Source of the DNA: an uncultured Phycisphaerales bacterium
GTDB lineage: Bacteria > Planctomycetota > Phycisphaerae > Sedimentisphaerales > Anaerobacaceae
Assembly: GCA_963718665.1 (NCBI GenBank)
Contig: OY970359.1
Coordinates: 1,600,001-1,664,000, forward strand
Direction of reading: 5' to 3'
DNA length: 64,000 nt
A model generated the notes under the pieces. The model did not search any database. It was not told where the DNA came from and saw only the letters and a list, made by a program, of their open reading frames with translations. The first letter of the stretch is position 1. Each line of letters starts with the position of its first letter. The translations under genes were made by a program, and so were the position numbers. Of this stretch, positions 28,770 through 60,024 are shown piece after piece.

Positions 28770-29151
28770 GGGGACATTAAAAAACTGCCGCAACTTCAGT
28801 TTTTATAAGTAGTTACAAATCCGTGTCATCTGTGAAATCTGTGGTTGAGACCTTGTTTTTTGTGCATTTTTGTGGCCTAAAAACCACTCTTTTTTCGTGA
28901 CAATTTTTGCTGTAACCTCTTTCCTTATAACGGCTTAAATTCTGGATATGAACAGTCGTATAAAACAAATGTATCAAACAGTTGTATGATACAACTGTTA
29001 TCCATTTTCGCGCAAGTCGAAAACCCTTAGATTCAAAAATTTCAAAATTTTTTTACTCCTTACGCAGTAAGGACTTATCAATTTTGGCCCCATCAGGAAA
29101 TCCCTTAGTTTTCGTCAAAAGCGCGAAGTTCGCGCCATAGGATAGAGGGAC
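28770..29151 (+). promoter_or_regulatory. Conserved ~382-bp non-coding element, copy 1 (upstream of HNH-AP2 gene)
   Basis: Aligns by eye with 59643-60024 from GGGGACATTAAAAAA to TAGAGGGAC; function inferred. Confidence 0.8.
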
Positions 29152-29332
29152 CTTGTGGGTAACTCAGGCGGGCAGGCACAACTGATATTAAAAATCAAAA
29201 AGTAAAAGGCAAAAAGACAACGCAAAGCTCAAAAAGGTCTGTGCCGTTCGGCTGGCGAAAGTGTCTACCGAAATGTTTCCGCATTTTTGCTTTTTTATAT
29301 TTAATTTTTGATTTAAGAAGGGGGAGGATATT

Positions 29333-29935
29333 ATGGCAAGTATCACAATCAAAGTTCCAAACTGGTTAGACCGTATCTGCACCTGGCCTGTGATGTTTTA
29401 TCGCAGGCGTAAGTATGGTTACGACTTTCGCAGGATATACCTCGGCGAAGGGGAATGGACGATAGTTGACGCCGATGTCTATTATCGCCTCGGAAATATC
29501 AAATGGTGTTTAAAAGGGCACAAGACAAAACTATACGCCATTGGAGGCGTCAGGAACGAATGCGGAAAAGGAATAGAAATGGTACATTTGCACAGGAAGG
29601 TTGCCAATGCGCCAAAGGGGCAGATTGTTGACCATATAAACGGCGATTCCCTCGACAATCGAAGGGCCAATCTCCGTTTGGCAACACGGTCTCAAAATTG
29701 CCAGAATGCGAAAAAAAGAAAAAATACCTCATCGCGATTCATTGGCGTTAGTTTTCAGAAATCGCATAAAAAATGGTGGGCATATATTAGCTTTGAGAGA
29801 AAAAGAACGCATTTGGGCTATTTTGACAATGAAATCGAAGCTGCCCGCGCTTATGACGCAGCCGCCAGGAAGTATTACGGCGAATTCGCAAGGTTGAATT
29901 TTCCGGAGGAAAATTCACTATCCGCTACTCGCTGA
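29333..29935 (+). CDS. HNH endonuclease with C-terminal AP2 DNA-binding domain
   Basis: [17 protein letters not shown] (HNH_3); SSRFIGVS...WWAYI...[15 protein letters not shown]...NFP (AP2). Confidence 0.93.
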
Positions 29936-30058
29936 ACGCTGTCCGCTGTATATATCATGGCGAAGCCGTTATCCGGCTGACAAAACAGCGTAAATCGGCG
30001 TTAATCTGCGTTAATCTGCGTCTAAATAATCCCTCCGGCTCTGGGGAGAATAAACGGT

Positions 30059-30087
30059 TTGCAAAAGGGGGGGAAATTCGTTAAATT
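30059..30087 (+). promoter_or_regulatory. Sigma70-type promoter for the tRNA
   Basis: TTGCAA-N17-TAAATT about 130 bp upstream of the tRNA. Confidence 0.5.
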
Positions 30088-30107
30088 AACACAGCAGAGC
30101 AAAGATT

Positions 30108-30212
30108 CACCGCTGAGCACGCGGAAACCGCTGAGACACGGAGCGATAGTGACGAGCCCGCTTCGGAAAAGAATATAAAGTAAACTCTGCGTCCTCTGCG
30201 ATCTTTGCGGTG
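30108..30212. repeat. REP-like long inverted repeat (ACCGCnGAGnnCGCnGAG family) upstream of the tRNA
   Basis: CACCGCTGAGCACGCGGAAACCGCTGAG pairs imperfectly with CTCTGCGTCCTCTGCGATCTTTGCGGTG. Confidence 0.65.
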
Positions 30213-30219
30213 AAAAACC

Positions 30220-30302
30220 GGCTGAGTGGCGGAATGGCAGACGCTGGGGACTTAAAATCCCCTGTCCTCACGGACGTATGGGTTCGACTCCCATCTCGGC
30301 CA
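30220..30302 (+). tRNA. tRNA-Leu (anticodon TAA)
   Basis: Acceptor GGCTGAG/CTCGGCC-A; anticodon arm GGGGA-CTTAAAA-TCCCC; long variable arm; GGTTCGACTCC; CCA not encoded. Confidence 0.97.
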
Positions 30303-30307
30303 ATTTT

Positions 30308-30376
30308 ACCGCGGAGTTCGCAGAGACCGCGGAGAAAAAATAAAATAACCTCTGCGCTCTCCGCGTGCTCTGCGGT
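30308..30376. repeat. REP-like long inverted repeat downstream of the tRNA
   Basis: ACCGCGGAGTTCGCAGAGACCGCGGAG ... CTCTGCGCTCTCCGCGTGCTCTGCGGT. Confidence 0.7.
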
Positions 30377-30405
30377 GAGATTGAATAATGTGAGGTGTTA
30401 AGAAT

Positions 30406-31734
30406 ATGGCGAAAAAGGTTTTCAAACTGGCTGACGTGGCAGAGCCGAATCTGTACCGGGAAGTGTTCCCTTATACCGAATTTCCTATTACGAAATTCGA
30501 GAAGCGGGGCGTGCCTTATGAACTGCCCGAGCAGATATGGATAACGGACACGACTTTCCGCGACGGCCAGCAGGCAAGGCCGCCATATACGCCTGAGCAG
30601 GTTTTGAGGATATACGACCTGCTGCACGAGATAGACGGCGATACCGGTCTGATTCGGCAGTGCGAGTTCTTTTTGTATTCGGACCGCGACCGCAAGGCGG
30701 TTGAGCTTTGCAAGGCACGCGGCTACAAGTATCCGGAAATCACCGGCTGGATTCGTGCGGTCGCGGAGGATTTCAAGTTAGTCAAGCAGATGGGGCTTGC
30801 GGAGACGGGAATTCTGACGAGCGTGAGCGATTATCACATATTCCTGAAACTTCGAAAGACCCGTGCACAAGCGCTGGCAGGATATTTGGATATTGTGAAG
30901 GCGGCTTTGGACCAGGGTGTTTTGCCGAGATGCCATTATGAGGATGTAACGCGGGCGGATTATGATGGATTTATACTGCCGTTTTCCGCGGAGCTGATGA
31001 AGCTGGGCGAGGAGTATAAAAAGCCCATTAAAATTCGGCTGTGCGATACGCTTGGTTTTGGATTGCCCTGGGCGGGTTCTGCGCTGCCGAGAAGCGTGCC
31101 GAAACTTGTTGCGGGGCTTCGCAAGATTGGTGTGCCGGGTGAGCAGCTGGAATGGCACGGGCATAATGATTTGCACAAGGTGGAGGTAAATGCCGCGACG
31201 GCGTGGCTGTACGGGTGCTGTGCGGCGAATAGTGCGATATTCGGCGTCGGCGAGCGGACGGGCAACCCGCCTCTGGAAGCGATGATTATCGAACATGCGC
31301 AAATCAAGGGGATGATGAAAGGCGTTAATTACGCGGCGATAACCGAGCTTGCCCAGTATGCCGCAAAAGAGCTTGGTTTCGATATAGCCAGCAATTATCC
31401 GCTTGTGGGCAGGGACTTTAATGTAACCCGCGCGGGTATTCACGCGGACGGCCTGCTGAAAAACGAGGAGATATATAACTGCTTCGATACCGATAAACTG
31501 CTGAACAGGCCCGTTGAGGTCGCGATTACGGACAAGACGGGTGCGGCAGGGATAAAGCACTGGATTGAATCAAGGTTCCAAATGGAAATTATGAAGCATG
31601 ACCCGCGAGTGATAAAGATAAGAGACCGGATAGCGGCGGAATACGCTTCGGACAGGTCGTCGGCCATATCGGACGACGAGATGTTTAAGTGGATAAAAGA
31701 GGCGTTCGGGGACGAGATGCCTCCTTTGAGGTGA
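30406..31734 (+). CDS. DRE-TIM acyltransferase, Re-citrate synthase-like
   Basis: ITDTTFRDGQQ, IRQCEFFLY, EWHGHND, GERTGN; no LeuA regulatory domain. Confidence 0.8.
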   Translation: MAKKVFKLADVAEPNLYREVFPYTEFPITKFEKRGVPYELPEQIWITDTTFRDGQQARPPYTPEQVLRIYDLLHEIDGDTGLIRQCEFFLYSDRDRKAVELCKARGYKYPEITGWIRAVAEDFKLVKQMGLAETGILTSVSDYHIFLKLRKTRAQALAGYLDIVKAALDQGVLPRCHYEDVTRADYDGFILPFSAELMKLGEEYKKPIKIRLCDTLGFGLPWAGSALPRSVPKLVAGLRKIGVPGEQLEWHGHNDLHKVEVNAATAWLYGCCAANSAIFGVGERTGNPPLEAMIIEHAQIKGMMKGVNYAAITELAQYAAKELGFDIASNYPLVGRDFNVTRAGIHADGLLKNEEIYNCFDTDKLLNRPVEVAITDKTGAAGIKHWIESRFQMEIMKHDPRVIKIRDRIAAEYASDRSSAISDDEMFKWIKEAFGDEMPPLR

Positions 31735-31777
31735 TAAAATTAAACCACAGATTTCACAGATTACTCAGATAAGAGCG

Positions 31778-32569
31778 GTGGTGTTTGACCTGGGCGAGAC
31801 CCTGCTGAATTTCGGCAAGTTGGAGACGATGCAGATCTTTAGGCAAAGCGCGAGGTTGACTTACGATTACCTGAAGAGCCACGGTCAGCCCGCGGGTAGT
31901 TTCTGGTGGTATTTTATTCGCAACATTGCTGCAATCCAGGTGAGGACTTTGTGGGGGAATATTACGGGCAGAGATTTCGATGCTTTATCGCTTTTGAAAA
32001 GGTTCGGCATCAGACGCGGCTACACGCTAAATGAGGAACAGTGGCGGGAGGTTGGGTGGCTGTGGTATGAGCCGTTGAGCAGGATTGTGAAGGTCGAGCC
32101 GGATATAAAGGAAACGCTGGGTAAACTGAAGGGCATGGGGCTTAAATTAGGCATATTGAGCAATACATTTGTAAGCGCGGGGTCGTTAGACAGGCAGCTT
32201 GAGCAGCTTGGTATGCTGGAGTTTTTTCCGTATCGACTTTATTCTTACCAGTATGAGTTTCGCAAGCCGGACAGGCGGATATTTGAGGCGGCGATAGCGA
32301 AGGTGGGTGAGCTGGCGGAGAACATCCTTTTTGTTGGCGACAGGATATACACGGACATCAGGCCGGCGTTGAAAGCAGGAGTGCGGGCGGCATTGAAGTC
32401 GGCTTACACGAATAAGGGCAAAAAAGTGCCGGCTGGCGTCTGGAGAATAGATAAAATAAATGAATTGCCGATGATTATCGAAAAGGTTAACGGTATGAAA
32501 TCTGCGGATGGTGATGAGCTGCCAGCTGAAATTCCGGTTGCTGGTTGTGACGTATGCAAGAGGTGTTGA
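31778..32569 (+). CDS. HAD-superfamily hydrolase
   Basis: VFDLGETL, LSNT, RKPD, FVGD; true start may be GTG 31731 if one A is missing at 31736-31739. Confidence 0.88.
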   Translation: MVFDLGETLLNFGKLETMQIFRQSARLTYDYLKSHGQPAGSFWWYFIRNIAAIQVRTLWGNITGRDFDALSLLKRFGIRRGYTLNEEQWREVGWLWYEPLSRIVKVEPDIKETLGKLKGMGLKLGILSNTFVSAGSLDRQLEQLGMLEFFPYRLYSYQYEFRKPDRRIFEAAIAKVGELAENILFVGDRIYTDIRPALKAGVRAALKSAYTNKGKKVPAGVWRIDKINELPMIIEKVNGMKSADGDELPAEIPVAGCDVCKRC

Positions 32570-33913
32570 ATGGGTAAGCAGGTTGTTTTTCAAAGGTGTA
32601 TAAACCCTGATTGTGCGGCGGAGTATGACGTCAGCGAAGTGATATTCAAGTGCCCGAAGTGCGGGGACCTTTTGGACGCACAATACAACTGGGACCAAGT
32701 AGATATCCCGAAGAAGCTGGCTGATTTCGGCAAACGCTGGGCGAACAGGAACAATCGGCTGGATTTGTCGGGGGTGTGGCGGTTCAGGGAGCTTTTGAAT
32801 TTCTGCGATGATAAATACAAGATAACAATCGCGGAAGGGCAGACGATTTTGCAGGCCAGCGACGAGGTCGGCAAATATGCGGGGATGAAGGCGGGGCGAT
32901 TATTTTTGCAGTATGAGGGATTGAATCCGTCGGGGTCATTCAAGGATAACGGGATGACGGCGGCGTTCAGCCACGCAAAAATGGTGGGGGCGAAATCTTG
33001 CGCTTGTGCATCGACGGGCAACACGTCGGCGTCGGTTGCTCTTTACGCGCACAGCTGCGGGATGAAATGCACGGTCTTTATCGGGTCGGGAAGAATCGCT
33101 TTCGGGAAATTATCGCAGGCGATGGATTACGGCGCACAGACGATACAGATAAAGGGCGACTTCGATGATTGTATGAAGCAGGTGCAGGACGTCTGCACGA
33201 AACTCGGGTTATATCTGCTCAACTCGCTCAATCCATTCCGCTTGGAAGGGCAAAAGACGATAATGCTGCGGATTATCGAGGGGCTTGGGTGGGAAGTGCC
33301 TGACTGGATAGTTGTGCCGGGGGGCAATTTGGGCAATTCGAGCGCGTTCGGCAAGGCATTTTACGAATTGAAGCAGTTAGGTTTGATTAAACGTGTGCCG
33401 CGGCTGGCGATTATCAACGCGACGGGCGCGGATACGCTGACGGATATGGTGAACAACAAGAAATTGGTGTGGAACAACGGCAATGTGAATAACAAGGTCA
33501 TCGCCGATTACTACGCGGACCTTACGGCGAGGAAGTTTTCGCCTCATACGTGCGCATCGGCGATTGAAATTTCGCGGCCCGTGAATCTGAAGAAGTGTCT
33601 GCGTGCGATAGACGTTTGCAATGGCGTTGTGCGGGCGGTGAGCGATGAGGCGATTTGCGACGCCAAGGCGGTGATAGGCAAATACGGTCTTGGCTGTGAG
33701 CCGGCGTCGGCGGCATCAGTTGCGGGTCTGAAACTATTGCGAGACGAGGGCGTCATCGGGGCGGATGAGCGAATCGCGTGTGTGCTTACGGGGCATGCGC
33801 TTAAGGACCCGAATGTTACGGTGAATTATCACAAGGAAAAACAGGGGCTGTTCAGTAACCCGCCGATTGAGGCGCCGAACGATTTTAACGAGATATTGAA
33901 ACTTATAAAGTAG
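32570..33913 (+). CDS. thrC: Threonine synthase
   Basis: N-terminal Cys motif, [33 protein letters not shown]. Confidence 0.93.
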
Positions 33914-34016
33914 CAAAGGAAGAGACAGATATAGATTTGCCTTTGCCTGTCCGCTCGCCTGTGATGCAAGCAATTGTTTAACCGATATTTGAGGCCGGCA
34001 GGGCCTGAGTCGTTTG

Positions 34017-36494
34017 CTAAAAACTCAGGTCGTCTGTCTCGTTGAACGCAGCGAAGCTCAAGCCGAACTTCGCATCGCCCGACGCAACACCAAGGTCCGA
34101 CTTGATTATCGACACCGTAAATGTGCAGTTGTCGAGGTCTATACTTGCCGTTACCAGGGTGTTAATATTTTCGGCAGGAGTGATAACAGGATTGATTTTG
34201 CCGCAATTGTATAAATGTCCTTTCTTAGAGGCTTTAAAGCTGCCTTGGGGGATTGTGAAGGTCTGGGTGTTTGTATCATTCACGTCGCTTAAGGTAATGA
34301 CGACTTCTTTTGTGACCAGATTCGGTTCGTTGGTGTCGAGGTTCATATCCGCCACAGCAATGTCACCTTTTACGGACAACGAATCAGACGATGCTTTGGT
34401 GACGTTTTTGACCTTTGCCTTAGTGACAATAAGCGTGTCTTTATACAATCTCATAAGGCGGGCAGGTATCGACTGTTTGCTGCCGTTGACAACCGTTTCC
34501 CCGGCATTACCCGACACTTGATAGCCGCCCATAGTGAATCCGAGTTGAACCGGGCAAGCCAGGCCGGTCAGGTCGAGGTTATTGGCCTTTATCGCAAAGG
34601 TTCTTTTATGGAAATCCAGCGTCAGGGAAGTAATTTTTCCCGGCTGGCCCTTATAAACTTTGGCCAGGTGCGTGTACTTTCCTTTGCTATTGACCAGTGT
34701 CGGGTTGAAATCGCTTAGAGTTTCGGTGTAAACGACCTTGCCATCAGTTACAGAGGTGATATTAACTTCTACTGAATTTATATCGCTATAGTCACTTGGC
34801 AGCGTAATGGTTCCAGAGGCCTCGAAAGTATCTTTCATATCATTGTAGTCAGCGTTGTTATGATACTGGGTTTTGCCAGCCGCAACCTTACATTTGGTGA
34901 TTGTCAGAGAAGTTCCCGTCTGAAGCACTATATGACAAACAGTCAGAGGCGGGATGGTATATGTGAATGTGTTGTTTGTTATATCGGTGATTGCGGCGGT
35001 CTCCGTGATAGCGGGGCTGCTGCTGTCAAATCGCCACACTCTGCCTGATGTGAAATTTTGCGGGCTGGTAATATTGAAGGTTCCGGTGATGGCATTATTC
35101 ATGTTCTTATTAATGACTATCAGATGCATCTCGCAGGTATAGCCGTTGAACACAGAGGCATAAATGGAGCTGTCAACCTTGTCGGACATTGTCGAATAAA
35201 CTTCCGTATCTCCGAATGTGGATTTGTTGTTGTCGTAGTTTGTGTACATTTCGATTGCGGCATCAACATAGTTACCGTCACCCCAGTAACTCGCAAGGTA
35301 AACTCCGTATTTGCCGAAGATACCAAGGACATCCGCGGTGGCAATGCCGCCTGACCAGTGGGTTTCTCCGCCGTAAGCATACTCGGTTATCGTGAGATTG
35401 GTGTCAGGATAATAGGTATTTATTGAGCTCTGTAACCTGGGAATTATTGGCAGGTAACTGCTGTACCATTCCCCAATCCAGCTATTTTCAATATAACCCT
35501 GGTCCCACAGAGTTCTCGGCGCCTGCATACGGGCATCCCAGTTTGCGCTGTAATTCATAAAGTTTGTAATTCTGACGTCATTCACGTCCATCGCTTCCGG
35601 ATACCAGTGGACATCGAGAGCATCTAATAGTCGTTTGCCGGCGGCGACTGAATTTGCTTCCATCTTGTTTAAATAATAACTGAGGAACCAGTCATATCCA
35701 CTTCCTACGGTGCCCCAGTCGGGTGCGCCTTGGAAAGTCAGATAGCCGTTGAAACCATAGCTGACAGGGCCAAGCATCTGGGCATTGGGGTCAACATTTT
35801 TTACGGCTAAGGATATCGCCACGCTTTTATCTTTATATTCCGCACAGCCGGTCGCAGCAGGGTGAACTTCAGGGTGAGTGCTGTCCCAGAGGTCGGGTTC
35901 GTTGTCCATATCGTAGAATTTGACACCGTTCGGGTCGCCAGCGTGACCGTATTTGCTCACAAGAAAATTGACAAATTCATCCATATAGACATTGGGGTCA
36001 TTTCCGTCGGGATTGCCAGCAGGGCTGCAGAAGGGAGCGCCTTTGGCGAAAACGGCCTGCTTGAATCTTGATGATGGCGCTGTTTGAGTGGTTAGATCGA
36101 CATCGCCGCTGCCGTCAGCCGAGACATAGCCGGCCATTTGCACTGTTACGATAGAGTCCTGTTTGTTCGTAACACAGGAATTACGAAAATCGGTTACATA
36201 TTGGCCCGGAGTAGTGCTGCTGCAAAGATAATTATCGTTGCTGTAATACCAGTCGTTGCCGGCGTTTGAGTAGTTGTTTTCCCAGTTGTAAGCGGTTAGT
36301 CGATTTCCGCCACTTCTTACGACGGTGTAATTTGAGTTGCCTGTATCGTTTGTGCCGTAGACGTATTTGCTGATAGGCGTCCTGTTGACGTCAGTTTTGA
36401 TGTTATAAGTTACATTTATATTGGCTGCTGATGCAATTGGGCTATACGACAGATAGAAAACCAACGCGAGGGTGAGTAAGGTCGTTGCTTTCAT
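34017..36494 (-). CDS. Secreted glycoside hydrolase family 44 with a long C-terminal beta-rich extension
   Basis: RSGGNRLTAYNWENN, MDNEPDLW, DVHWYPEA, ITEY. Confidence 0.88.
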   Translation of the reverse strand: MKATTLLTLALVFYLSYSPIASAANINVTYNIKTDVNRTPISKYVYGTNDTGNSNYTVVRSGGNRLTAYNWENNYSNAGNDWYYSNDNYLCSSTTPGQYVTDFRNSCVTNKQDSIVTVQMAGYVSADGSGDVDLTTQTAPSSRFKQAVFAKGAPFCSPAGNPDGNDPNVYMDEFVNFLVSKYGHAGDPNGVKFYDMDNEPDLWDSTHPEVHPAATGCAEYKDKSVAISLAVKNVDPNAQMLGPVSYGFNGYLTFQGAPDWGTVGSGYDWFLSYYLNKMEANSVAAGKRLLDALDVHWYPEAMDVNDVRITNFMNYSANWDARMQAPRTLWDQGYIENSWIGEWYSSYLPIIPRLQSSINTYYPDTNLTITEYAYGGETHWSGGIATADVLGIFGKYGVYLASYWGDGNYVDAAIEMYTNYDNNKSTFGDTEVYSTMSDKVDSSIYASVFNGYTCEMHLIVINKNMNNAITGTFNITSPQNFTSGRVWRFDSSSPAITETAAITDITNNTFTYTIPPLTVCHIVLQTGTSLTITKCKVAAGKTQYHNNADYNDMKDTFEASGTITLPSDYSDINSVEVNITSVTDGKVVYTETLSDFNPTLVNSKGKYTHLAKVYKGQPGKITSLTLDFHKRTFAIKANNLDLTGLACPVQLGFTMGGYQVSGNAGETVVNGSKQSIPARLMRLYKDTLIVTKAKVKNVTKASSDSLSVKGDIAVADMNLDTNEPNLVTKEVVITLSDVNDTNTQTFTIPQGSFKASKKGHLYNCGKINPVITPAENINTLVTASIDLDNCTFTVSIIKSDLGVASGDAKFGLSFAAFNETDDLSF

Positions 36495-36816
36495 TTTGCT
36501 TTTCCTGACTTCGCTATCCTGCCCGCCGGAGCCCCAAAAACGACTCTAACCCGGCAGGGAAGCGGATTTTGAGTATGGCTTTATTATCATCTGACATTTC
36601 CCATATATACACCTTAATAACATCGGTATGTCTTCTGATTGCCATAAGTTTTTCACAAGCAATTTGGTCTGAAGATACGCAGAAAGACCGATATGATTGT
36701 GATTTTGCGTTCGCTGTTTTCGGAAATATCTTGATGGGAGTTTGTAAAACAACATAATATGGTGCGATTTGAAGCCGGTTAAATTCTTCGGGTAACTACA
36801 TTTGGGTCAGGAAAGA

Positions 36817-38482
36817 ATGGATTTGAATATTAGTCGCGGCAAGGTGTTTTGGATTACAGGGGCGTTGCTATTATCTGCGATGCTCGCCGGGTGGAAGCTT
36901 TCGGCGGTCCCGCTCGATGACCACGAGAGTTATGTGTCGGTTACTGCGCGAGATGCTGGGAGGCGGCAGTTGGATTGAGCCGACATTCAATGGTGAACCA
37001 CGACTGCAAAAGACACCCCTTTCATACTGGCTTGTGGCGAGTATTGCCAGGGTTACGGGTAAGGTTGATGAGTTTGCGGCGCGGCTGCCGAGCGCGGTTT
37101 TCGCATTTTTGTCCGCCGGGGCGGTGCTGTATTTCGTGAATCGATGGCTGTCGCTGCGAATCGCGTTGATAGCGACGGCTGTTTGGGCAACATCGATTGC
37201 ATACGTTCACTGGTCACATTCAGCGAGGCCTGAGATGGGGCTGGTTTTTTTTGTGACGCTGTGCCTTTTGTCTTTTTACTCAGCGATAACCAGTGGAGAC
37301 CGCCGGAGTCGTGTTGTTTTTATGTTTATCTTCTGGGGAAGTTTCGCGCTGGGTAATCTTGCGAAGGGACCAGCGCCGGTTGTTTATGTTTTACTGCCTG
37401 TGGGTTTATATATTGCGGTCAGGAGGGAATGGCGTGTAATTCCGAAATTGCTGCCGGTCTGGGGGATAATCATTTGTCTTGCTGTTGTATTGCCCTGGCC
37501 TTTGGCGGCGGCGTATAAAGCAAACTGGGACGTGATGATATGGAAGCGTGAGTTTTTCGACCGGTTGTTCGGCGAGTACGCGGCAGGCAATTATCCGTGG
37601 TATTATTACTTTGGGATGGTGTTCAAATACACAGCGCCGTGGTGCATTTTTCTTCCGATTGCCCTTGTTGCGCCTTTCTACAAGTCGTGGGGCGAAAAAC
37701 GGCCGGTTATGCAGTTTTTATGGTTGTGGTTTGCGGCAGATTATGTGTTTCTGATGCTGTCAGGAGGCAAGCGTCAGCATTATCTTCTGCCGCTGATTCC
37801 TGCGATGTCGATACTAACCGCTATACTGATAGATGAGATGGCGTTTGTGCGTCAGGTGTTTACGCTCAGATATGCGGCAAATATATTGCGGGGTCACGTA
37901 TTATTTTTCGTTTTGGTTTCGATAGCGGTTCCTGTTTATTTCGCCAAGGCGAAGATTCCAGAATTGGCATCCGCGACGGCGTGGGTATATGTGATTAGCT
38001 TTTCTGTGATTTTGATTGTGACGACCATAGTTGTTGCAATTCTTTTTGTTAAACGGTATTCGAGCATTGCCTGCGTTACGCTTTTTTGCGGAATCACCGT
38101 TTTAATGGCGCATCATTATACAGGTTTGTTAAGTATTATCAGTCCGGACAGGGCGGTGAAGGAATTTGCTCTAAAGGTTGCGGATATTGTGCCGGTGACC
38201 GACAAGATGGTTTCATACGGGCCTGTGCCATCCAATTTCATACATTACTTTGGCAGGGACGTGAAAAGAATCCAGGACGAAGCCGAATTGAACAATCTCT
38301 ATCAACAGAATTGCTGGGTTGTTTCATTCGGCAAGGGGATGGATGAGCTGTTGAGCACAGGGCGATACAAACTTGTGTATATGGATACGAACGCCAAGAG
38401 GCGCGGGGAAAACATATCTGCCGGAGGGTTGTTTCATAATTTTTCCTCTTCTGTTAGCGTGCCTTCGATAAGCAGCCAATAA
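36817..38482 (+). CDS. ArnT/PMT-family (GT-C) glycosyltransferase; apparent frameshift near 36950
   Basis: PTFNGEPRLQKTPL, ARLPSA, LAKGP; N-terminus with DDHE motif begins at ATG 36817 in another frame. Confidence 0.85.
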
Positions 38483-38504
38483 TTTATATCGGGGAGATAA
38501 GTGA

Positions 38505-40091: not shown

Positions 40092-40111
40092 AACCTGTTG
40101 TGTTCTAAGAA

Positions 40112-40762
40112 TTAGTTCCGGGGTATTTGCGGCAGCGGATTGGGTATTTCCTCTATAACTCCTGCCTGGTTGAGCCGTATTGCGAATTCAGCCATATTAT
40201 TATTGAGGAATGGGCGCAGGGAACGTTTGTTGTCGTGGATGGGGTATCCGTGTTTTTCCATTTCATCTTCGACGATATTGGGGTTTATTTTCTGCACCAA
40301 AAGCTGGTATGTTGCGATGACGCCGCCGGTTCTTGCTGCTCCGGCGGCACAATGCACAAGCACAGGCAGGTTTTGTTTTTCCGCGTTGGCTATCGCGATG
40401 ACTGCACTGGTGTAATCATTTACATCCCCGGTGCCGTTGCCGCGCATAGGGAAACTTAATACTTTAATTTTCAGCTCGGCTGCGGCCTGTTTCTCGGCTT
40501 GCTTGTCGTGGTTATTGAGGTCGGCGGAGGTAAGGTCAACAATGATGCGGATGTTGTATTTAGTCAGTGTTTTTTTTATCAGGGAGGCGGATATTTGCCC
40601 GCTGCGATAAACATGTCCCGGAACCACCACGCCGAAATTTCTCGGGATGATGTGGTATCTGATGAAACCAAACCAGGCCCATGTCGCCAATCCAATAATG
40701 ATTACCGGCACTACGACAAACACCCATTTGTGCTTGGCCCTGGATGAAGCATTAAGATTCAT
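40112..40762 (-). CDS. Membrane-anchored PTP/dual-specificity phosphatase
   Basis: N-terminal TM, YRSGQ, VLVHCAAGAARTG. Confidence 0.87.
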   Translation of the reverse strand: MNLNASSRAKHKWVFVVVPVIIIGLATWAWFGFIRYHIIPRNFGVVVPGHVYRSGQISASLIKKTLTKYNIRIIVDLTSADLNNHDKQAEKQAAAELKIKVLSFPMRGNGTGDVNDYTSAVIAIANAEKQNLPVLVHCAAGAARTGGVIATYQLLVQKINPNIVEDEMEKHGYPIHDNKRSLRPFLNNNMAEFAIRLNQAGVIEEIPNPLPQIPRN

Positions 40763-40869
40763 TTGGCAGTCCTTTCAGCATTGCGGTTTATTTTAATAAA
40801 CCGCGGATAAAGTTTATTTCCTGTTTGGTAAGTTGTCCGCCTTTAATTTTTATGGTGCCAGAGAAAGGA

Positions 40870-41526
40870 TTAGTCCCTCGGTATTTGGGGAATCGTTGCG
40901 GGGATTTCGTCAATAATTCCGGCCCGTTTGAGCCGGGTAGCCAACTCAGCCATATTATCGTTTAGAAATGAACGAAGAACCGGCCTGTCGTCGATGGCGC
41001 ATCCGTATTTTTCAATTTCATCTTCAACAATATTTGGGTCAATTTTTTGCACCAGAAGCCGGTATGTTGCGATGACGCCGCCTGTTCTTTGGGCTCCTGC
41101 GGTGCAATGCACAAGGACAGGCAGGTTTTGTTTTTCCGCGTTGGCTATCGCGATGACTGCACTGGCGTAATCATTTATATCGCCGGTGCCATTACCGCTC
41201 ATAGTAAACCTTAATACTTTGATGTTTAGTTCGGCTGCGGCCTGTTTTTCGGCCTGCTTGTCGGGGTTGTTGGGGTCGGCGGAGGTAAGGTCAACAATAA
41301 TGCGAATGTTGTATTTAGTCAGGGTTTTTTTTATCAGAGAGGCAGAAATTTGTCCGCTTCGATAAATATGTCCCGGCACTACGACGCCGAACCTTTTGGG
41401 GACAAAGCGATATTTGATGAAGCTAAACCAGACCCATACCGCTAATCCAATCACGATTGCCGACACGGCGACAAAGAGCCATTTATGCCCGGCCCCGGAA
41501 TATACTTGTGAAGCGTTAAGATTCAT
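40870..41526 (-). CDS. Membrane-anchored PTP/dual-specificity phosphatase (paralog)
   Basis: YRSGQ, VLVHCTAGAQRTG; near-identical core to 40112-40762. Confidence 0.87.
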   Translation of the reverse strand: MNLNASQVYSGAGHKWLFVAVSAIVIGLAVWVWFSFIKYRFVPKRFGVVVPGHIYRSGQISASLIKKTLTKYNIRIIVDLTSADPNNPDKQAEKQAAAELNIKVLRFTMSGNGTGDINDYASAVIAIANAEKQNLPVLVHCTAGAQRTGGVIATYRLLVQKIDPNIVEDEIEKYGCAIDDRPVLRSFLNDNMAELATRLKRAGIIDEIPATIPQIPRD

Positions 41527-41551
41527 TGAGCAACCCTGTCAGCATTGTGGT

Positions 41552-42103
41552 TTATTTGAATAAACCGCGGATAAAGTTTTTCTCCTGCTCGGTAAGCTGT
41601 CCACATTTAATTTTTGCGGCTTCGGCGAGAACCTGTTCGAGGGTATTCTGCCGATTTTTGGCGAGCCATACGGCGGCAAGTACCGCGACACGGCCTTCGC
41701 CTTTGCCATCATGGACCAACACGGGAAGGTTTTCCTTGTCAGCTATTATATCGAGGAATTTTTGCTGCATATTCGCGTCGGGGAAATGAGCAGGGTCGTT
41801 TACGTTTCTTTCCAGCGGCATCTCGAAGTATTTGACGCTGTTGCTTCGGACCCAGGTCATTTCCTCACTGTACCAGTTTTGTTCGCGATGTTCAGCGGGC
41901 GAGCGGAGGTTGATGATTGTGCCGATGTGATACTTGTAAAGCAATCGGGTGTAGTCCATACCTCTGGGCTGGCCGCTTGTATAAAGGATACCCGGGCTTA
42001 TACAATTTAAGTCGGCAATCCAGAAGTTTTCGACAAGCATCACGATTGCGCCGACGATAATTGCTATTGTTATAATGGTTCGCAAGGGACTTTTCTTTTT
42101 CAC
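41552..42103 (-). CDS. PTP-fold protein with Asp in place of the catalytic Cys
   Basis: YTSGQP, IINLR, VLVHDGKGEGR. Confidence 0.75.
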   Translation of the reverse strand: MKKKSPLRTIITIAIIVGAIVMLVENFWIADLNCISPGILYTSGQPRGMDYTRLLYKYHIGTIINLRSPAEHREQNWYSEEMTWVRSNSVKYFEMPLERNVNDPAHFPDANMQQKFLDIIADKENLPVLVHDGKGEGRVAVLAAVWLAKNRQNTLEQVLAEAAKIKCGQLTEQEKNFIRGLFK

Positions 42104-44940: not shown

Positions 44941-45157
44941 AAGATTGAATGGTTTACTTTAAATAACAGTTTTGCGGGTTAATTATGCTGATTAGCGGCG
45001 TTTTTACAAGATTATTGGCGTGATGGATATTTTGAATTTTAATCAAATTTTAAGCGGGTGCTAATCTGCCGGTAACGCAAAATGTTTAAACACGTTATCG
45101 GTGAAAGTCACAATAGGTTGGTCTTGTTGACGAACCTGTAATAATAAGACGTCAATA

Positions 45158-50401: not shown

Positions 50402-50428
50402 AAATTTTTACTGATGACTCGGGACGAG

Positions 50429-50965: not shown

Positions 50966-51324
50966 CCAGATTCTCCCAATCTAAAGTATTGCAGATATTT
51001 ATGTTATATCCAAGATACCTATGCAGTTTTACGCCGTATAAATCGGCATTTCTTATTGATGAGTTGATATAGGAAGCGTTTTGTTTGTCTTGCTGTTGGC
51101 TGTGCGATAAACGCTGATATTATAGGGTGTAATGCTGGTTTTTGGGAAAAGACCAAACAATATGAGGCATTTCGGGGTATATAGGCGAGTTAGGGGGATT
51201 TTTGTATAAGAGAAGGGATTTGCGAAGTAATTGGGGGGTGTTATAGCCGCAAAGATGGTCTGGGTTTGGTTGAAGTATTAGATAGAATGGTGTATAATCA
51301 AAGGTTTGTCTGAAATTGGGTTAA

Positions 51325-53379: not shown

Positions 53380-54320
53380 CAAAATCGAGCCGAGCCAGAA
53401 CGTTGAGATTGGCGATTTTCGGAGACCGCAGAAAAGGGCACGTCGCGGAGGCGATAGCGGATTTTGCGGATTTTGTAAAAGGCAAGCCCCTCGACTCTGC
53501 TCCCCTCGACAAAGCTCGGGGCAGGCAGGGCAGGGTTCGGACGGTGGTTAATTGCGGGATTGATGAGTGCACACCTGATAATTTGCAGGAGGCGGATTAC
53601 GCGATAGTTTTTGGCGGGGACGGGAGTATCATCGCGGCGGCGAGGCGATTAAGCCGAAGCGACGACAAAACGGGGATTCCAGTCATAGGTGTTAATCTCG
53701 GCAAGCTCGGATACTTGGCGGAGTTCAGCGTTGAGGAGTTGAAAAAGTTTTTCCCGGAGCTGATGAAGGGCAAGGCGATAATTGAGAAGCGAATGATGCT
53801 TCTTTGCCAGGTGCTAAGGAAGGGCAGGGAGCGTTTTTGTTCGACGGCAGTGAACGACGTATTCATAACGGCGGGGCCGCCGTTTCGGATGATAGACCTG
53901 AAGATGTTCGTTGACGGACAGCATTTGGGTGATTGCGTCAGTGACGGGCTGGTGGTATCGACGCCGACTGGCTCTACGGCGTATGGATTGTCTGCGGGGG
54001 GGCCGATTCTGTCGCAGAAGATGGAAGGGATAGTAATTACGCCGATATGCCCGCACAGTTTAAGTTTCAGACCTATTGTTATAAGAGCGGACAGTGTTGT
54101 TGAGCTTCGCGGGGAGCGTTTGAATGAGGGGACGACGGTTTCGATAGACGGACAAGTGTCGCTGGAGCTGGAAATTGATGATGTGGTGCAGATAAAGCGG
54201 CACAAGAGGGATTTTCTTGTTGTGAATAATCCGCTTCGGTGCGAGTGGGATACGCTGGCGACGAAATTAGGCTGGGCGGAAAAGCCGAAGTATCAGGGCG
54301 TTGAGAAGAATAATCGATAA
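53376..54320 (+). CDS. nadK: NAD+ kinase
   Basis: GGDG, NLGKLGYL, DGLVVSTPTGSTAY.LSAGGP. Confidence 0.95.
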   Translation: MTKSSRARTLRLAIFGDRRKGHVAEAIADFADFVKGKPLDSAPLDKARGRQGRVRTVVNCGIDECTPDNLQEADYAIVFGGDGSIIAAARRLSRSDDKTGIPVIGVNLGKLGYLAEFSVEELKKFFPELMKGKAIIEKRMMLLCQVLRKGRERFCSTAVNDVFITAGPPFRMIDLKMFVDGQHLGDCVSDGLVVSTPTGSTAYGLSAGGPILSQKMEGIVITPICPHSLSFRPIVIRADSVVELRGERLNEGTTVSIDGQVSLELEIDDVVQIKRHKRDFLVVNNPLRCEWDTLATKLGWAEKPKYQGVEKNNR

Positions 54321-54354
54321 TCGATTATTTTGACCACGGTTTACGAATTGCAAC

Positions 54355-55875
54355 GTGGATTTATATGCGAACAGGATGAATTTGCCCGGGGTAGCAGTTA
54401 ATATGAGAAGCATAAGGTTGGTGTATGTATTGGTGTTTACTTTGGTTGCTTTTGGGGGGGTGGGTCTATCATTGGAAAATCCATCGATTGGCAACCCTGT
54501 GGGGTCCGGAACTGTTCCGCCGACGGCGTATCAGCCGGGATTAGTCCATAGCCCAAACCCGATCGATATGAGCGGTAATCTTGTGATTACGGGCAACGTT
54601 GCCAACGGTATGCAGTTCAGGGGTGTTGTGCCGTATAACAGTCCGACGAGTTTTTACGCGCCGGCGGGTTCGCTTTGGCGTACATCGGCTGGGCTGGATT
54701 CATTTTTGAGGGATACCGCGGGTTCGCAGAATTTCGGGCCGAGCAGCGGTGGTTTGACGCCTTATTATTCACCAACGTGGACGGTAACGACAACGCAGCC
54801 GGGCGTGCAAGGAGTGGTTACGACCGGCGGTTCGGGGGCAAATTCATTTGCAGGCACAAATTTACCGAATGCCCAGACAGGATATTACCTACCCGGGTAT
54901 AACTCTCAGATTAACAAACGGCCGTTGTCGCTGAGCCAGGAGGACTTGGAGAAACTTGTCGAAACGGATGTTACGAAATATCCTAAGGGAAGCGAGGCGG
55001 ATTCGCAATTGCAGGACCAGTTCTGGCGTGATATGGGAGTAAAGATTGAGCGCAAAGAGGAAGCGGCTGATATCACGGATAAGACGGGGCCGGGGCAGGC
55101 GACGAGCAGTGAGCCGAGTTTGGAGGAACTGCTTGGCGGGAATACTCAGGGATTACAGAGGTCGAAGGACAAGCAACGGGTTGATAAAGAAAGATTGGCG
55201 GGTCAGCCAGGCGAAACACCGAAGACGGAGCAGGTGGCTGATATATATGAACAAATGAAGGGGCGGCTGGGCAAGACGATTGAATTGCCCAAGGGTGAGG
55301 GCATATCTGCGACAAAACAGGCGGAGGCGAATGAATCGACAGTATCAAAGCCGGGCGTTACGCCGGCGGAGTTCGCGAAGGCGTATAAGAGTTTTGCCGT
55401 TTTAAGCGATGACAGGTTCAATCAGCATATGAGGGCGGCAGAAGGTTTTATGAAGCAGGGGAGATTTTACAGAGCCGCGGATGCATACACTCTTGCTTCG
55501 ATATATAAGCCAAATGACCCGCTGGGTTACGCGGGCAAGAGCGTGGCGTTGTTCGCGTCGGGAGAGTATCTGAGCAGCTCGCTGTTTTTGGCCAGGGCAT
55601 TGGAAATTTTCCCGGAATACGCGAAGGTCAAGATTGATCTTGTGGGAATGATAGGCGACAAAGATACGGTTGAGAACAGGATACTCGAAGCTCGTGATTG
55701 GATGGACAAGAGTGATTCCGGTGAGCTGGAATTTCTGCTAAGCTACATTTATTATCAGATGGACCGGCTGGAGTTTGCGAGGCAGTCGATAGAGGCGGCG
55801 GCGAAGAAGATGCCGGATTCGCCGGCGGTCGCGGCGATGAAGAAGGCGATAGACGAGCGCCTTGCAAAACCTTAA
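54355..55875 (+). CDS. Secreted hypothetical protein with C-terminal TPR repeats
   Basis: Signal-like N-terminus (start perhaps ATG 54403), low-complexity middle, TPR-like helices. Confidence 0.7.
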   Translation: MDLYANRMNLPGVAVNMRSIRLVYVLVFTLVAFGGVGLSLENPSIGNPVGSGTVPPTAYQPGLVHSPNPIDMSGNLVITGNVANGMQFRGVVPYNSPTSFYAPAGSLWRTSAGLDSFLRDTAGSQNFGPSSGGLTPYYSPTWTVTTTQPGVQGVVTTGGSGANSFAGTNLPNAQTGYYLPGYNSQINKRPLSLSQEDLEKLVETDVTKYPKGSEADSQLQDQFWRDMGVKIERKEEAADITDKTGPGQATSSEPSLEELLGGNTQGLQRSKDKQRVDKERLAGQPGETPKTEQVADIYEQMKGRLGKTIELPKGEGISATKQAEANESTVSKPGVTPAEFAKAYKSFAVLSDDRFNQHMRAAEGFMKQGRFYRAADAYTLASIYKPNDPLGYAGKSVALFASGEYLSSSLFLARALEIFPEYAKVKIDLVGMIGDKDTVENRILEARDWMDKSDSGELEFLLSYIYYQMDRLEFARQSIEAAAKKMPDSPAVAAMKKAIDERLAKP

Positions 55876-55927
55876 CGCATATCGTATATCGTATTTCGTA
55901 TATCGAACCACGAGCGACGAAATACGA

Positions 55928-57964
55928 ATGACTAACGACGAAATACAAAGCACGGCTTTGAATATAGATGATTTTTTTGCGCCTGGAGGGGCGATAGGCC
56001 GGGCATTTGAGGGATACGAACGGCGTCAGCAGCAGGTCGATATGGCCAGGGCGGTGCAAAAGTCGCTATCGACGAAGCGGCATTTGGCGACGGAGGCGGG
56101 GACAGGCGTCGGGAAGAGTTTGGCATATCTTGTGCCTGCGATAGAAAAGGCAATTCTTGGGGCAAATCGAGTAGTCATCAGCACATTCACAATCGCTTTG
56201 CAGGAGCAGTTAATTAATAAGGATATTCCCTGTTTGAACCGGTGTCTGCCGTGGGGGTTCAAGGCGGCGCTGGCAAAGGGTAAATCGAATTATATTTGTA
56301 AACGCCGGCTGGAGTTTGCGATTCGAAGACAGATGGGCTTGTTCGACCAGTTCAGTGATACTCTTGCGGAGATAAATAACTGGGCAACGAGAACGGCGGA
56401 CGGGTCGCTGAGCGATTTGCCTTTTATACCGGATGGTCGGGTTTGGGACGCGGTGAAGGCGGAACACGGCAATTGCAAAGGCAGGAAGTGCGGACATTTT
56501 ACGAGCTGCTTTTGCCAGCGTGCGAAGAGGGAGCTTGAGAACGCGAATGTTATTGTGACGAATCACGCGTTATTATTCAGCGACCTTGCGCTGCGGGAAG
56601 AAGAGTTTTCGATACTGCCAGATTATAAGTGGGTGATTATCGATGAGGCGCATAACATTGAGCGAGTGGCGGAGGAACATTTCGGGATAGAGATAAGCAG
56701 CGGGTCGGTGCGGTTTTTGCTGGACGGGCTTTATAATCCGCGAACACACAAGGGGCTGCTGGTTTATACGGAAGCCGGAAAATTGACGGACATGGTTGTC
56801 AAGGCATCAGAGGCGGCGAAAGAATTTTTCAAAAGCATTCGGCAGTGGGATGAGCGGCACAAGACACAAACTAATGGACGATGCTACAAGAATTTCGTTG
56901 AGGATAAGTTATCTGCGCAGATTAAGGAATTGCGGGCGGGGTTGTCTGGTTTGGCAAAGCAGGCGAAAGACGAGGATGAGCGATTTGAATTGACGCGGTA
57001 TGTCGATAAATGCACAGGGCTGTTGCAGGATTTGGAGGCATTTTTGCCACAGGCCAAACAGGATTATGTTTATTGGGTTGAGGTTAGTGAGAATAAACGT
57101 GAGGCGGTTTACCTGAAAAGTGCGCCGTTAAACGTCGGAGCGGATGTGAAAAGGAGTTTGTTCGATAAGTTTGAGTCGGTGATAATGACGAGCGCGACGT
57201 TAAGCAGTGGTTCGACCCCTTCGACAAGCTCAGGGCAGACAAGCTCACCACGAGTGGGGGGAGAAAAGGGAAAGGGCGGATTCGAGTTTTTCGCGGGGAG
57301 GGTTGGCTTGGGGGATTATGACGCGGTGAAATTAGGTTCGCCATTTGATTATCAAAGGCAGGTAACGATTTATGTCGAGAGCGAATTGCCTGAGCCGAAT
57401 GATGAGAAGTTTGTTGAGTCGGCGTGCGAGGCGGTGAAGAAATATGTGCTGCGAACACAGGGGCGGGCGTTTGTGCTTTTCACGAGTTATAAGATGCTGG
57501 GGGATTTCGCGGAACAATTGGCGGAGTGGTTTAGAGAGAACAATATAGAATTGCTTCAGCAGGGGGTGGGGTTAGACAGGACATCGCTATTGAGACGATT
57601 CAAGATGGACGGGCGATTTGTGTTGTTCGGGACAGATAGTTTCTGGCAGGGGGTGGATGTTGCGGGCGAGGCGTTATCGAACGTGATAATTGTGCGGCTG
57701 CCTTTCGCGATGCCTGATACGCCTTTGTTGGCGGGGCGGTTAGATAAAATCAAAGAAGAAGGCGGCAATCCTTTTGCGGAGTATCAGTTGCCTTTGGCGA
57801 TAATAAAGTTCAAGCAGGGCTTTGGCCGACTGATTCGGACGAAGACGGATACAGGCATTGTTGTTATTTTGGATTCCCGCATATTGAGCAAATCATACGG
57901 CAAGAATTTTTTGGTGGCGATACCGAAATGTAAGACCGAAATAGTTGCTCGCGGCAGGCAGTAA
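55928..57964 (+). CDS. DinG/YoaA-family Fe-S DNA helicase
   Basis: EAGTGVGKS, four Cys, IIDEAH, SATL, FWQGVD, KQGFGRLIR; start placed at ATG 55928. Confidence 0.93.
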   Translation: MTNDEIQSTALNIDDFFAPGGAIGRAFEGYERRQQQVDMARAVQKSLSTKRHLATEAGTGVGKSLAYLVPAIEKAILGANRVVISTFTIALQEQLINKDIPCLNRCLPWGFKAALAKGKSNYICKRRLEFAIRRQMGLFDQFSDTLAEINNWATRTADGSLSDLPFIPDGRVWDAVKAEHGNCKGRKCGHFTSCFCQRAKRELENANVIVTNHALLFSDLALREEEFSILPDYKWVIIDEAHNIERVAEEHFGIEISSGSVRFLLDGLYNPRTHKGLLVYTEAGKLTDMVVKASEAAKEFFKSIRQWDERHKTQTNGRCYKNFVEDKLSAQIKELRAGLSGLAKQAKDEDERFELTRYVDKCTGLLQDLEAFLPQAKQDYVYWVEVSENKREAVYLKSAPLNVGADVKRSLFDKFESVIMTSATLSSGSTPSTSSGQTSSPRVGGEKGKGGFEFFAGRVGLGDYDAVKLGSPFDYQRQVTIYVESELPEPNDEKFVESACEAVKKYVLRTQGRAFVLFTSYKMLGDFAEQLAEWFRENNIELLQQGVGLDRTSLLRRFKMDGRFVLFGTDSFWQGVDVAGEALSNVIIVRLPFAMPDTPLLAGRLDKIKEEGGNPFAEYQLPLAIIKFKQGFGRLIRTKTDTGIVVILDSRILSKSYGKNFLVAIPKCKTEIVARGRQ

Positions 57965-57968
57965 TCTG

Positions 57969-59264
57969 TCATTTGTCCGCGACGGGGACATTGGCATCAC
58001 AGGGGGAATCGGGAAGTTTTTGTCCTTCAACGTATTCTGTTACAAAGCAGGAACTCTTTACAAGACCTGACTTGCGCAATTCAATATAGGCCAGCGGATT
58101 TGGCGAGGGGATTTTGAGTAATCTGGTTCGATGGGCATTTAGCCAGGTTGATTTAGCGGTGGAATTGCCGAAAGTTTGCCGCAGAGAATCGACAAGCCCT
58201 TTCGTCTTATAACGAGCCACGGCTATGTCTGAGCCGTTCCATTTCAAACGGGATACGACGCAGATGTCGTTGTTTTTAAGAAACTGCCCGCTTTCAATTA
58301 TCTTGTCGAGGTTTTTTATAAAGTCGAGCGGGCCGGTTTGGGGCCAGAAGCTTTTTGTAAACACGCCCCGGTAGTTGGCGGTTTTAACAAGGGTATATTT
58401 TGAATTTGTTCGCAGAGTTTGGCCGAGAGCTCTGCGGATTTTTTCCCCCGTGTTTAATCGCTGGCGTGTTTTTCGGAGCACCGCTTTAATAAGGATTTTT
58501 CCTGTTTTTTTGCCTATTCCAGTCCAGGCACAGTATTCTGTGAAGAATCTCATTCGGTCTGTTCTGCTGAGGAGGCCGCAGGCGCTGATATTGAGCTGCA
58601 CGAGATTTTTGACGCGGAGCCAAAAAGGGAGCAGGATAAATTTTTTTGTTCTGGTGTTGTCGATGAAGAAGAATCGCCAGGAAGCTCTTTCGGGGCTAAG
58701 CAGCACATTGCCGAAGCGCAAGTCGCCGTGAAAGATTCCATTTGCGTGCATTTTGCCGATGGTTCTGCCGAAATTGCGTAACAGGTCTCTGAAGCCGGCC
58801 AATTGTTCAGGGGTCATAATTTCCCATGTTTGGCGAGCAATATCAATAGCTCTTTTTGTGTTTTCGATTCCGAGTGTGACCGAGAAGCTTTCGGAATGAA
58901 AAAGGCCTGAGCAGGACTCTCCAACAGCGACAGTTACAGGGACATCAAAGCCGTTTTGTGCAAGCATCATTTCCGCTTTATGCGAACATTTCGCCAAACT
59001 TCCGAAGATAAGGGATTTAAGGGAGGCGAGACCTGATTTGCGGAAAAACCACTTTATGTAAATATCCCTGTCGGCGCCTTCAAAGGGGATGTTAAATTTG
59101 CAAACGCGGCTGAACTCCGAAGACGGCAGAGTTTTAAGCGGGTATCGTTTTCGCAGGGTTTCTTCGCCTGACAACAGTGCCTGCCCCAGGTCGCTGCTGA
59201 GAAAGTTCTTCCTGATATACAACGTGAGATTATTTTGCTTAATTTTTACAAAATCGGCGTTCAA
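57969..59264 (-). CDS. Kdo/WaaP-family LPS kinase with truncated second kinase domain
   Basis: FHGDLRFGNV, FFIDN, RVKNLVQL, TDRMRF; TTG start 59264 with AAGGA RBS. Confidence 0.8.
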   Translation of the reverse strand: MNADFVKIKQNNLTLYIRKNFLSSDLGQALLSGEETLRKRYPLKTLPSSEFSRVCKFNIPFEGADRDIYIKWFFRKSGLASLKSLIFGSLAKCSHKAEMMLAQNGFDVPVTVAVGESCSGLFHSESFSVTLGIENTKRAIDIARQTWEIMTPEQLAGFRDLLRNFGRTIGKMHANGIFHGDLRFGNVLLSPERASWRFFFIDNTRTKKFILLPFWLRVKNLVQLNISACGLLSRTDRMRFFTEYCAWTGIGKKTGKILIKAVLRKTRQRLNTGEKIRRALGQTLRTNSKYTLVKTANYRGVFTKSFWPQTGPLDFIKNLDKIIESGQFLKNNDICVVSRLKWNGSDIAVARYKTKGLVDSLRQTFGNSTAKSTWLNAHRTRLLKIPSPNPLAYIELRKSGLVKSSCFVTEYVEGQKLPDSPCDANVPVADK

Positions 59265-59492
59265 GGTCTCATCCTTATTATTGCGACGGCTCGCGTGATG
59301 TTTTCCAGCGGTGGAATATAGCGGAATTGGGCGAAAGAAACAAGTTTTTAAGGTGCAGCGTACAGCGTTCAGCGGACAGGCCAAACAGCATAGCGGGCAG
59401 CTATGGCCCCTCGGCCTTGCTCGGGACAGGCGGACAGGTTATGGAAGCGAGAAGTTAGAAGGGAGAAGTAAAAACGGATTTAGGATTTGATT

Positions 59493-59518
59493 GGATTCCC
59501 GCCTGCGCGGGAATGACA
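59493..59518. repeat. dRS3-like palindromic repeat
   Basis: ATTCCC-GCCTGCGC-GGGAAT followed by GACA. Confidence 0.75.
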
Positions 59519-59642
59519 GTTATGAAATGGCTTGCAGTGAAATCCTCCTTCGCTGAAGCTACGGAGGACAGGCCAGTGGAATCCGCCTCCGGCGGACAAG
59601 TATGTGGCGGAGAGGGTTTTCTGCATAAAAAACAGGGGGGAT

Positions 59643-60024
59643 GGGGACATTAAAAAATGATGTAAGGCCAGTTTGTAGAAGTAGTTATAAACAATTGACT
59701 GTCCAAGAAGGGGGGCTTTTTGCACGGTTTTTTGGTCATTTTTGGGGCTGTTTTTTGAGTGTTTTTTAAGTCGCGTTTTTGCTGTAACCACTGCAAATAT
59801 AACTGTTTAAAATCTGGACACGAACAGTCGTATAAAACAAACGTATCAAACGCTTGTATCAAACACTTGTTATCCATTTTCGCGCAGGTCGAAAACCCTT
59901 AGATGGAAAAATTTCAAAAAATTTTATCTCCTTGTGGCACAAGGACTTATCGATTTTGGGCATATCAGGAAATCCCTTAGTTTTCGTCAAAAGCGCGCAA
60001 GTTTGCGCCATAGGGTAGAGGGAC
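59643..60024 (+). promoter_or_regulatory. Conserved ~382-bp non-coding element, copy 2 (upstream of phage head operon)
   Basis: Aligns with 28770-29151; same orientation relative to the downstream gene. Confidence 0.8.

Follow-up and report, generated by a model that had tools for sequence, protein, structure and literature searches.

Multi-locus gene transfer agents (GTAs) divide their phage packaging and head genes among distant loci, and such assignments need experiments (PMC11841831). A dedicated activator, GafY, serves the main GTA cluster together with about 18 accessory promoters (PMC11150451). Here we describe a repeated element in a 64-kb stretch of the genome of an uncultured Phycisphaerales bacterium (contig OY970359.1, positions 1,600,001 to 1,664,000), referred to throughout as the window; G000 denotes the 2.61-Mb genome that contains it. 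One copy of the element precedes a gene encoding a protein with HNH_3 and AP2 domains (HNH-AP2), and another precedes the portal gene of a phage-type head operon. The element is probably the promoter region of the head operon, captured repeatedly by HNH-AP2 genes.

Like RcGTA and CcGTA (PMC11841831), the present system comprises only phage packaging and head genes, spread over distant loci. It differs in belonging to another phylum, in its SU10 capsid family and in having no recognised tail. In the Gaf regulon the added promoters serve accessory structural genes, whereas here the common promoter stands before about 20 nuclease paralogues, and the candidate activator, a 148-aa, sigma4-like protein with a double helix-turn-helix (HTH), is not evidently related to GafA/GafYZ. 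Phage late activators of the RinA/ArpU/Q type adjoin packaging modules, and HNH packaging proteins of the HK97 gp74 type are under late control. The former arrangement is paralleled here by a small candidate activator gene heading the terminase module, the latter by HNH genes that would come under late-type control. Unlike the gp74 type, the nucleases belong to the homing class (HNH_3+AP2), occur in many copies and show no linkage to terS/terL, and the terminase promoter is sigma70-type. CecR/YbiH proteins are TetR regulators of efflux operons. A TetR_N + CecR_C protein likewise stands ahead of OEP/HlyD genes in this genome, and a palindromic array covers the promoter of its gene, but here the same array also lies inside the phage-head promoter and the nuclease leaders.

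Among nucleases, the closest known system is that of the free-standing, homing-type HNN-AP2 endonucleases of Xanthomonas phages Xp10, OP1 and Xop411, which are reported to lack conserved flanks and to be often degenerate (PMC2248197). As characterized there, they share with the present enzymes the combination of HNN and AP2, the lack of Cys dyads and the occurrence of several dispersed copies (PMC2248197). The present enzymes differ in being chromosomal, mostly intact and under purifying selection, in having an additional N-terminal helix, and in possessing a conserved shared leader that tracks the head-operon promoter. Taken singly, each part falls under a described type, be it GTA, free-standing endonuclease of the HNH class or TetR operator; in the literature searched, with subscription papers and bioRxiv supplements outside its scope, neither the system in the order Sedimentisphaerales nor the combination of these parts was found described.

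The two copies in the window are 382 bp apiece, lie on the same strand and are identical at 292 of 382 positions (BLASTN E 1e-74), identity being 81/130 for the 5' third and 211/248 for what follows it. A first-pass annotation, made from the window's letters, had reported this length, orientation and placement together with a set of shared blocks, all of which hold: the five blocks it quoted and the common terminal 9-mer each occur exactly twice in the window. The gaps of about 180 and 125 bp that it gave before two virus-type genes measure 181 nt to the start codon of the HNH_3+AP2 gene (29333) and 124 nt to that of the portal gene (60149). Its picture of two copies 31 kb apart was correct as to the copies themselves, but 11 exist genome-wide, and in most of them the left homology extends about 25 bp beyond the 382-bp bounds. 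The repeat is not an assembly artefact, because contigs from independent metagenome runs stack several-fold across it. The features concerned are listed below, by window coordinates.

28770..29151, + strand: class I leader, the copy preceding the HNH-AP2 gene
28791..28815, no strand: first palindrome of the TAAS-N17-STTA type, a genome-wide and intergenic motif that is not cassette-specific
28913..28937, no strand: second palindrome of the TAAS-N17-STTA type
28963..29000, no strand: three tandem 13-bp palindromic units, candidate operator for a CecR-like TetR regulator
29023..29151, + strand: core conserved order-wide, putative promoter, with A/T tracts, a 9+7+9 palindrome (29053-29077), a GCGCAAGTT-like box and the end box ATAGGATAGAGGG (29137-29149)
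29333..29935, + strand: gene for a predicted HNH-AP2 endonuclease of 200 aa, with an I-HmuI-like nuclease core and an AP2 domain; it belongs to a set of 27 paralogues
26576..27982, + strand: a pair of strain-variable genes on the left side of the cassette, with a weak HEPN match in one; relatives have different genes here
59643..60024, + strand: class I leader, the native copy preceding the head operon, with homology from near 59615
59835..59872, no strand: candidate CecR/TetR operator array in the portal leader
59895..60024, + strand: core of the portal leader, with the palindrome (59925-59949), GCGCAAGT (59995-60002) and the end box (60010-60022)
60149..61666, + strand: portal protein gene, SPP1-type
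61715..62233, + strand: capsid scaffold gene
62331..63485, + strand: major capsid protein gene, SU10 family
63566..64000, + strand: start of a conserved 218-aa gene 3' of the capsid gene, without a family match

Across G000 there are 11 class I leaders (nine full, two without the 5' third and the 13-bp array) and 27 HNH-AP2 paralogues, two of them split, at a median spacing of 68 kb and with no apparent replichore bias of the cassettes. Ten of the 27 genes have a class I leader, ten a shorter class II leader that aligns to the 3' 130 bp of class I, and seven a sigma70-type leader (TTGAC/TAAAAT) in the same slot, one of them interrupted by an insertion sequence (IS). A hidden Markov model (HMM) of the 130-bp core finds 21 matches in G000 at E<=9e-22 and the next only at E 0.6; since it was trained on those same 21 sites, the informative result is the absence of a 22nd. 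Twenty sites stand ahead of HNH-AP2 genes and one ahead of the portal gene, all 21 in gene orientation rather than at random positions and orientations. This supports the first-pass proposal of a promoter/operator module linking scattered phage-derived genes into a regulon. From the window alone it could not be seen that this regulon comprises one head operon and about 20 paralogues of one nuclease family, or that the head operon forms part of a divided, order-wide system of phage origin. The full element is present in 23/23 other genomes of the genus, with weak matches outside it. The viral contigs searched yielded no exact match to the leader pattern and one distant HNH-AP2, and two capsid relatives on such contigs are without the promoter motif.

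The window operon proceeds from the portal gene to the scaffold and SU10 capsid genes and continues for about 6 kb beyond the window end. The capsid gene occurs in 43/61 relatives, essentially in single copy and at 57-96% identity, and in 28/201 from further families of the phylum. Portal-scaffold-capsid order is kept at 40 fetched loci, usually followed by conserved unknown genes, and several genomes have a shortened head operon. Values of dN/dS for portal, scaffold and capsid are 0.07-0.22, as expected of head genes that evolve under purifying selection. Within the genus, the element precedes the portal gene at 11/11 loci having upstream DNA (12 fetched). Outside the genus the 3' architecture is retained, namely A/T tracts, the 9+7+9 palindrome, a GYGCARGTT box and a TAYRGAGG-like box 6-8 nt further. 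This bipartite motif exceeds 15 bits in 55/57 portal upstreams, against 1/57 shuffles, at a median of 80 nt to the start codon; the matrix was refined on the same 57-sequence set, drawn from 80 loci of which 23 had too little upstream DNA, and some genomes overlap earlier loci. Similar boxes were seen by eye at four loci of the same class. Conservation upstream of portal orthologues is the opposite of what the first-pass annotation had named as grounds for refuting its reading; the block-wise likeness, which it had ascribed to selection, is partly due to copying between the repeats. Related capsid operons in other families of the phylum (L225-L234) show 34-52% identity and different neighbours, with terL adjacent in one.

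The leaders also follow the head promoter across lineages. Six portal-promoter cores served as references for scoring 79 HNH-AP2 leaders, drawn from the genomes G000 (27/27), G017 (16/16), G050 (6/11), G026 (6/14), G060 (18/20) and G056 (6/9). Scores of at least 60 were reached by 47/79, with values up to 285 of 300 in G060, and for 47/47 the best match was the portal promoter of their own genus; the leaders thus track the promoter lineage by lineage. In G040, where no capsid gene was found, 4/6 leaders matched a relative from the family of that genome. Class I leaders are 85% identical, compared with 64% for their genes; in a quick, weakly supported gene tree the genes cluster by host lineage with leader types interspersed, and orthologous HNH-AP2 genes can bear different leader classes. 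The identity gap and the interspersed leader types indicate that leaders are repeatedly copied or converted, or co-evolve with a shared factor.

The packaging genes are separated from the head operon by about 680 kb and lie at a second locus, containing a sigma-region-4-like gene at its head (the 148-aa, double-HTH protein), an ABC ATPase gene, a GNAT-like gene (our label; its sole match is an ABC-associated PHROG), parB, terS and terL. The terL gene was found with PF17289, terminase searches using PF03237, PF04466 and PF03354 having given no match; present in 60/61 relatives (for example L088:3254-4822, minus strand), it is commoner than the capsid gene and may have a second role. The sigma4-like gene is found in 53/61 relatives, two of them marginal, and parts of the terminase locus adjoin the head operon in three genomes. 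Head and packaging genes are conserved across the host clade and mostly single-copy, the dN/dS values having been computed on head-operon genes and not on terL. There is no integrase near the head or terminase locus in G000, the nearest lying about 60 kb from the head operon, and none among the families conserved at 40 head loci. From this gene content, the head operon and terminase locus of Sedimentisphaerales together are a candidate for a GTA-like system. In G026, the terminase operon (L177:4897-6476) contains a DUF1376 replication-initiator-like gene and an HNH-AP2 gene without the N-terminal helix, which may represent how the genes were arranged in the ancestral phage.

By analogy with GafY and the phage late activators, the leading candidate for reading the promoter is the sigma4-like protein. 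The class III leader was considered as a possible copy of the promoter of the sigma4 gene; the two are alike in sigma70 architecture by eye, with no HMM match in G000. Five genus members have no clear sigma4-like gene; three of them have 0-3 HNH-AP2 genes, compared with 15-27 in most others, and the remaining two (13 and 30 HNH-AP2 genes) are fragmented assemblies.

A second candidate regulator is suggested by the three 13-bp units: a similar array covers the promoter of a CecR-like tetR gene (TetR_N + CecR_C) heading the OEP/HlyD efflux operon. With a tandem matrix derived from the units at tetR, scores are 27-36 bits for the tetR promoter and for nine class I leaders, 21 bits for one class II leader and at most 13 elsewhere. 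In G018 and G022, array variants are alike by eye at both places, the tetR promoter and the leader. We accordingly regard the 5' part of the element as a predicted, candidate CecR/TetR operator. An origin made of DnaA boxes or iterons was considered for the 13-bp units and set aside, the TetR operator explaining them better.

The HNH-AP2 proteins fit free-standing homing endonucleases of the I-HmuI type, as predicted from conserved residues and fold. Catalytic D100, H101, N109, N113 and N122 are invariant in 31/31 sequences, the nuclease motif is intact in 64/64 full-length copies, and 15 orthologous pairs give dN/dS values of 0.06-0.38. The best matches of a structure model are I-HmuI (top fold) and AP2 domains, none of them significant. 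At E<=1e-20, a match occurs in 36/61 genomes; with absence from many genomes and copy numbers ranging from 0 to 30, the genes are not needed for the head system. Their surroundings are variable. Among 40 loci from three relatives, the corresponding G000 site is empty at two, each insertion also bringing other genes; several fuse flanks from distinct G000 loci; and in 36 a gene that G000 lacks lies no more than 1.5 kb away, on the leader side in 29. Matches to PADLOC at E<=1e-10 (Gabija, restriction-modification, CBASS, Cas9 and others) were obtained for 30/107 strain-variable genes at 20/40 loci; the other 77, beside cassettes L089-L128, are candidate new defence genes. To the left of the HNH-AP2 start, at a distance of 0.5-2 kb, about 70% of the DNA is unshared, compared with 11-39% on the right.

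In the mechanism we propose, the element would control in cis a phage-head operon that has been domesticated and that would form, with the terminase locus, a split GTA-like system. The 3' core would be a bipartite, late-type, non-sigma70 promoter, read probably with the help of the small sigma4-type protein from the terminase locus, and in the present genus the TetR protein may act as a modifier through the 5' operator. Free-standing HNH-AP2 genes would have spread along the chromosome, repeatedly acquiring promoter copies by recombination, so that most of them would fire jointly with the head genes. Such co-induction would place many nucleases in a cell that is packaging DNA, and cuts or DNA ends at the repeats could turn these into recombination hotspots, with homogenised leaders, swapped flanks and turnover of adjacent defence genes.

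Several observations weigh against this interpretation. The core promoter was not found at terS/terL, which means that the packaging genes are not under it; the terminase operon has its own sigma70-type promoter. A fold search with the sigma4-HTH protein gave no match at E<=0.001, and the short weight matrix on its own is not specific across the genome. No tail, tape-measure or lysin family was recognised by PHROG or Pfam among head-operon and downstream proteins, the conserved downstream genes giving weak spanin-like and neck matches only. The head operon has been lost from the syntenic site in five genomes, all of which retain terL. Four of the five keep 17-25 nuclease genes, and full class I leaders persist in at least G019 and G020, so that the leader is independent of the head; the head-less G002, G005, G019 and G020 do, however, retain the sigma4 gene as well as terL. 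Gene conversion, with no selection for co-expression, could yield the own-genus tracking. As for the variable flanks, control loci are themselves 0.27-0.71 unshared and hence provide no valid background.

If the promoter assignment is correct, the head operon may still serve something other than a GTA, with tail-less capsids or decoys as its product and another purpose for the terminase and the sigma4 protein. We judge this unlikely: the lack of recognised tail, tape-measure and lysin families, the shortened operons and the wider distribution of terL (60/61 versus 43/61 for the capsid) speak for it, but none of portal, scaffold, capsid, terS and terL is missing, purifying selection acts on the head genes, and the unassigned downstream genes, conserved in order, could be a divergent tail. 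Quite unlikely, in our estimate, is that the element is mainly a site of DNA transactions (a packaging start, nick site or recombination end), beside which HNH-AP2 genes sit because DNA ends form there. Flank swaps and the concentration of strain-variable DNA at the cassettes, chiefly on their left, would fit such a site, as would the 5' third of the element left behind in G007 after head loss and the 9+7+9 palindrome, which we take to resemble a tyrosine-recombinase core. The fixed orientation close to a start codon, the sigma70 promoter that can stand in the same slot and the candidate transcription-factor operator in the element count against it; moreover, this type of palindrome is genome-wide with a freely variable spacer, and terS/terL have no element. 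It is distinctly improbable that the host has domesticated the HNH-AP2 paralogues as components of the particle system, in the form of nucleases that differ in specificity and open the chromosome at many places for packaging. Purifying selection, intact motifs, the 27 copies at a 68-kb median spacing and the HNH-AP2 gene within the G026 terminase operon would suit that role, but many genomes with a head operon, including the single-contig G031, G037, G038 and G054, are without a match at E<=1e-20, copy number varies from 0 to 30, and cassettes outlast head loss.

Two further possibilities are very improbable. A repeat of the miniature inverted-repeat transposable element (MITE) or repetitive extragenic palindrome (REP) kind, or an IS end, would account for the multiple copies on both strands, their fairly sharp ends and the near-confinement of the full length to one genus. 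None occurs away from an HNH-AP2 or portal gene, however, and the core is kept before the portal across the order; a scan of the window found no terminal inverted repeat, as the first-pass annotation had also stated, and eight cassettes show no consistent target duplication. A structured leader RNA or small RNA, which that annotation had offered as an option, is not supported. Pairing is predicted for some inverted repeats, but an Rfam scan of the window gave one tRNA only, with no covariance-model match within either copy, and the consensus fold (-20 kcal/mol over 439 columns) has an unfavourable covariation term, with any double change in 5/57 pairs.

Beyond the head-promoter assignment, a bolder and rather doubtful extension is a GTA-coupled gene drive, in which about 20 nucleases parasitise an undescribed Phycisphaerae GTA-like system via its capsid promoter and shuttle defence genes. 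If this were true, then on commitment to particles the ends made by nucleases near their own loci would bias packaging and recombination in recipients toward the nucleases and the defence islands. The system would be a candidate GTA in a phylum for which the literature searched gave none, and its visible candidate promoter, activator and small-molecule-sensing repressor offer a possible route to induction. The tracking of the head promoter by selfish-type nuclease genes, seen across several host families, brings two open questions about GTAs within reach of a test, namely exploitation by selfish elements and the origin of discrete packaging peaks. The cassettes also mark defence-island hotspots that can be used for mining new defence genes.

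Some smaller features of these loci were also recorded. The window cassette (25243-30302) lies between dnaA and tRNA-Leu; the close orthologue in G017 is on the opposite side of the redoxin gene, and in G006 another paralogue occupies the position used in G000. The G006 portal leader (L047, between 4960 and 6740) contains an IS1595-like transposase and a passenger gene, inserted just past the 9+7+9 palindrome. The spacers between leader and gene (window 29151-29333 and 60024-60149) consist of short REP-like and heptamer repeats that differ among copies. TAAS-N17-STTA palindromes, such as those at 45073 and 59663 in the window, are mostly intergenic and enriched at spacing 17 (148 sites genome-wide, versus 61-110 at other spacings); a role as a cassette-specific recombination site was rejected, since the 148 sites are spread over the genome. 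One HNH-AP2 gene is in frame with a GH57/GT5 glycosyl enzyme of 1190 aa (L001:853-4425, minus strand), and long open frames at HNH-AP2 matches occur in G003, G006 and G019 too. Elsewhere in the window, tandem triplications of ~345-aa genes and of dual-specificity phosphatases span 21491-24689 and 40112-42103.

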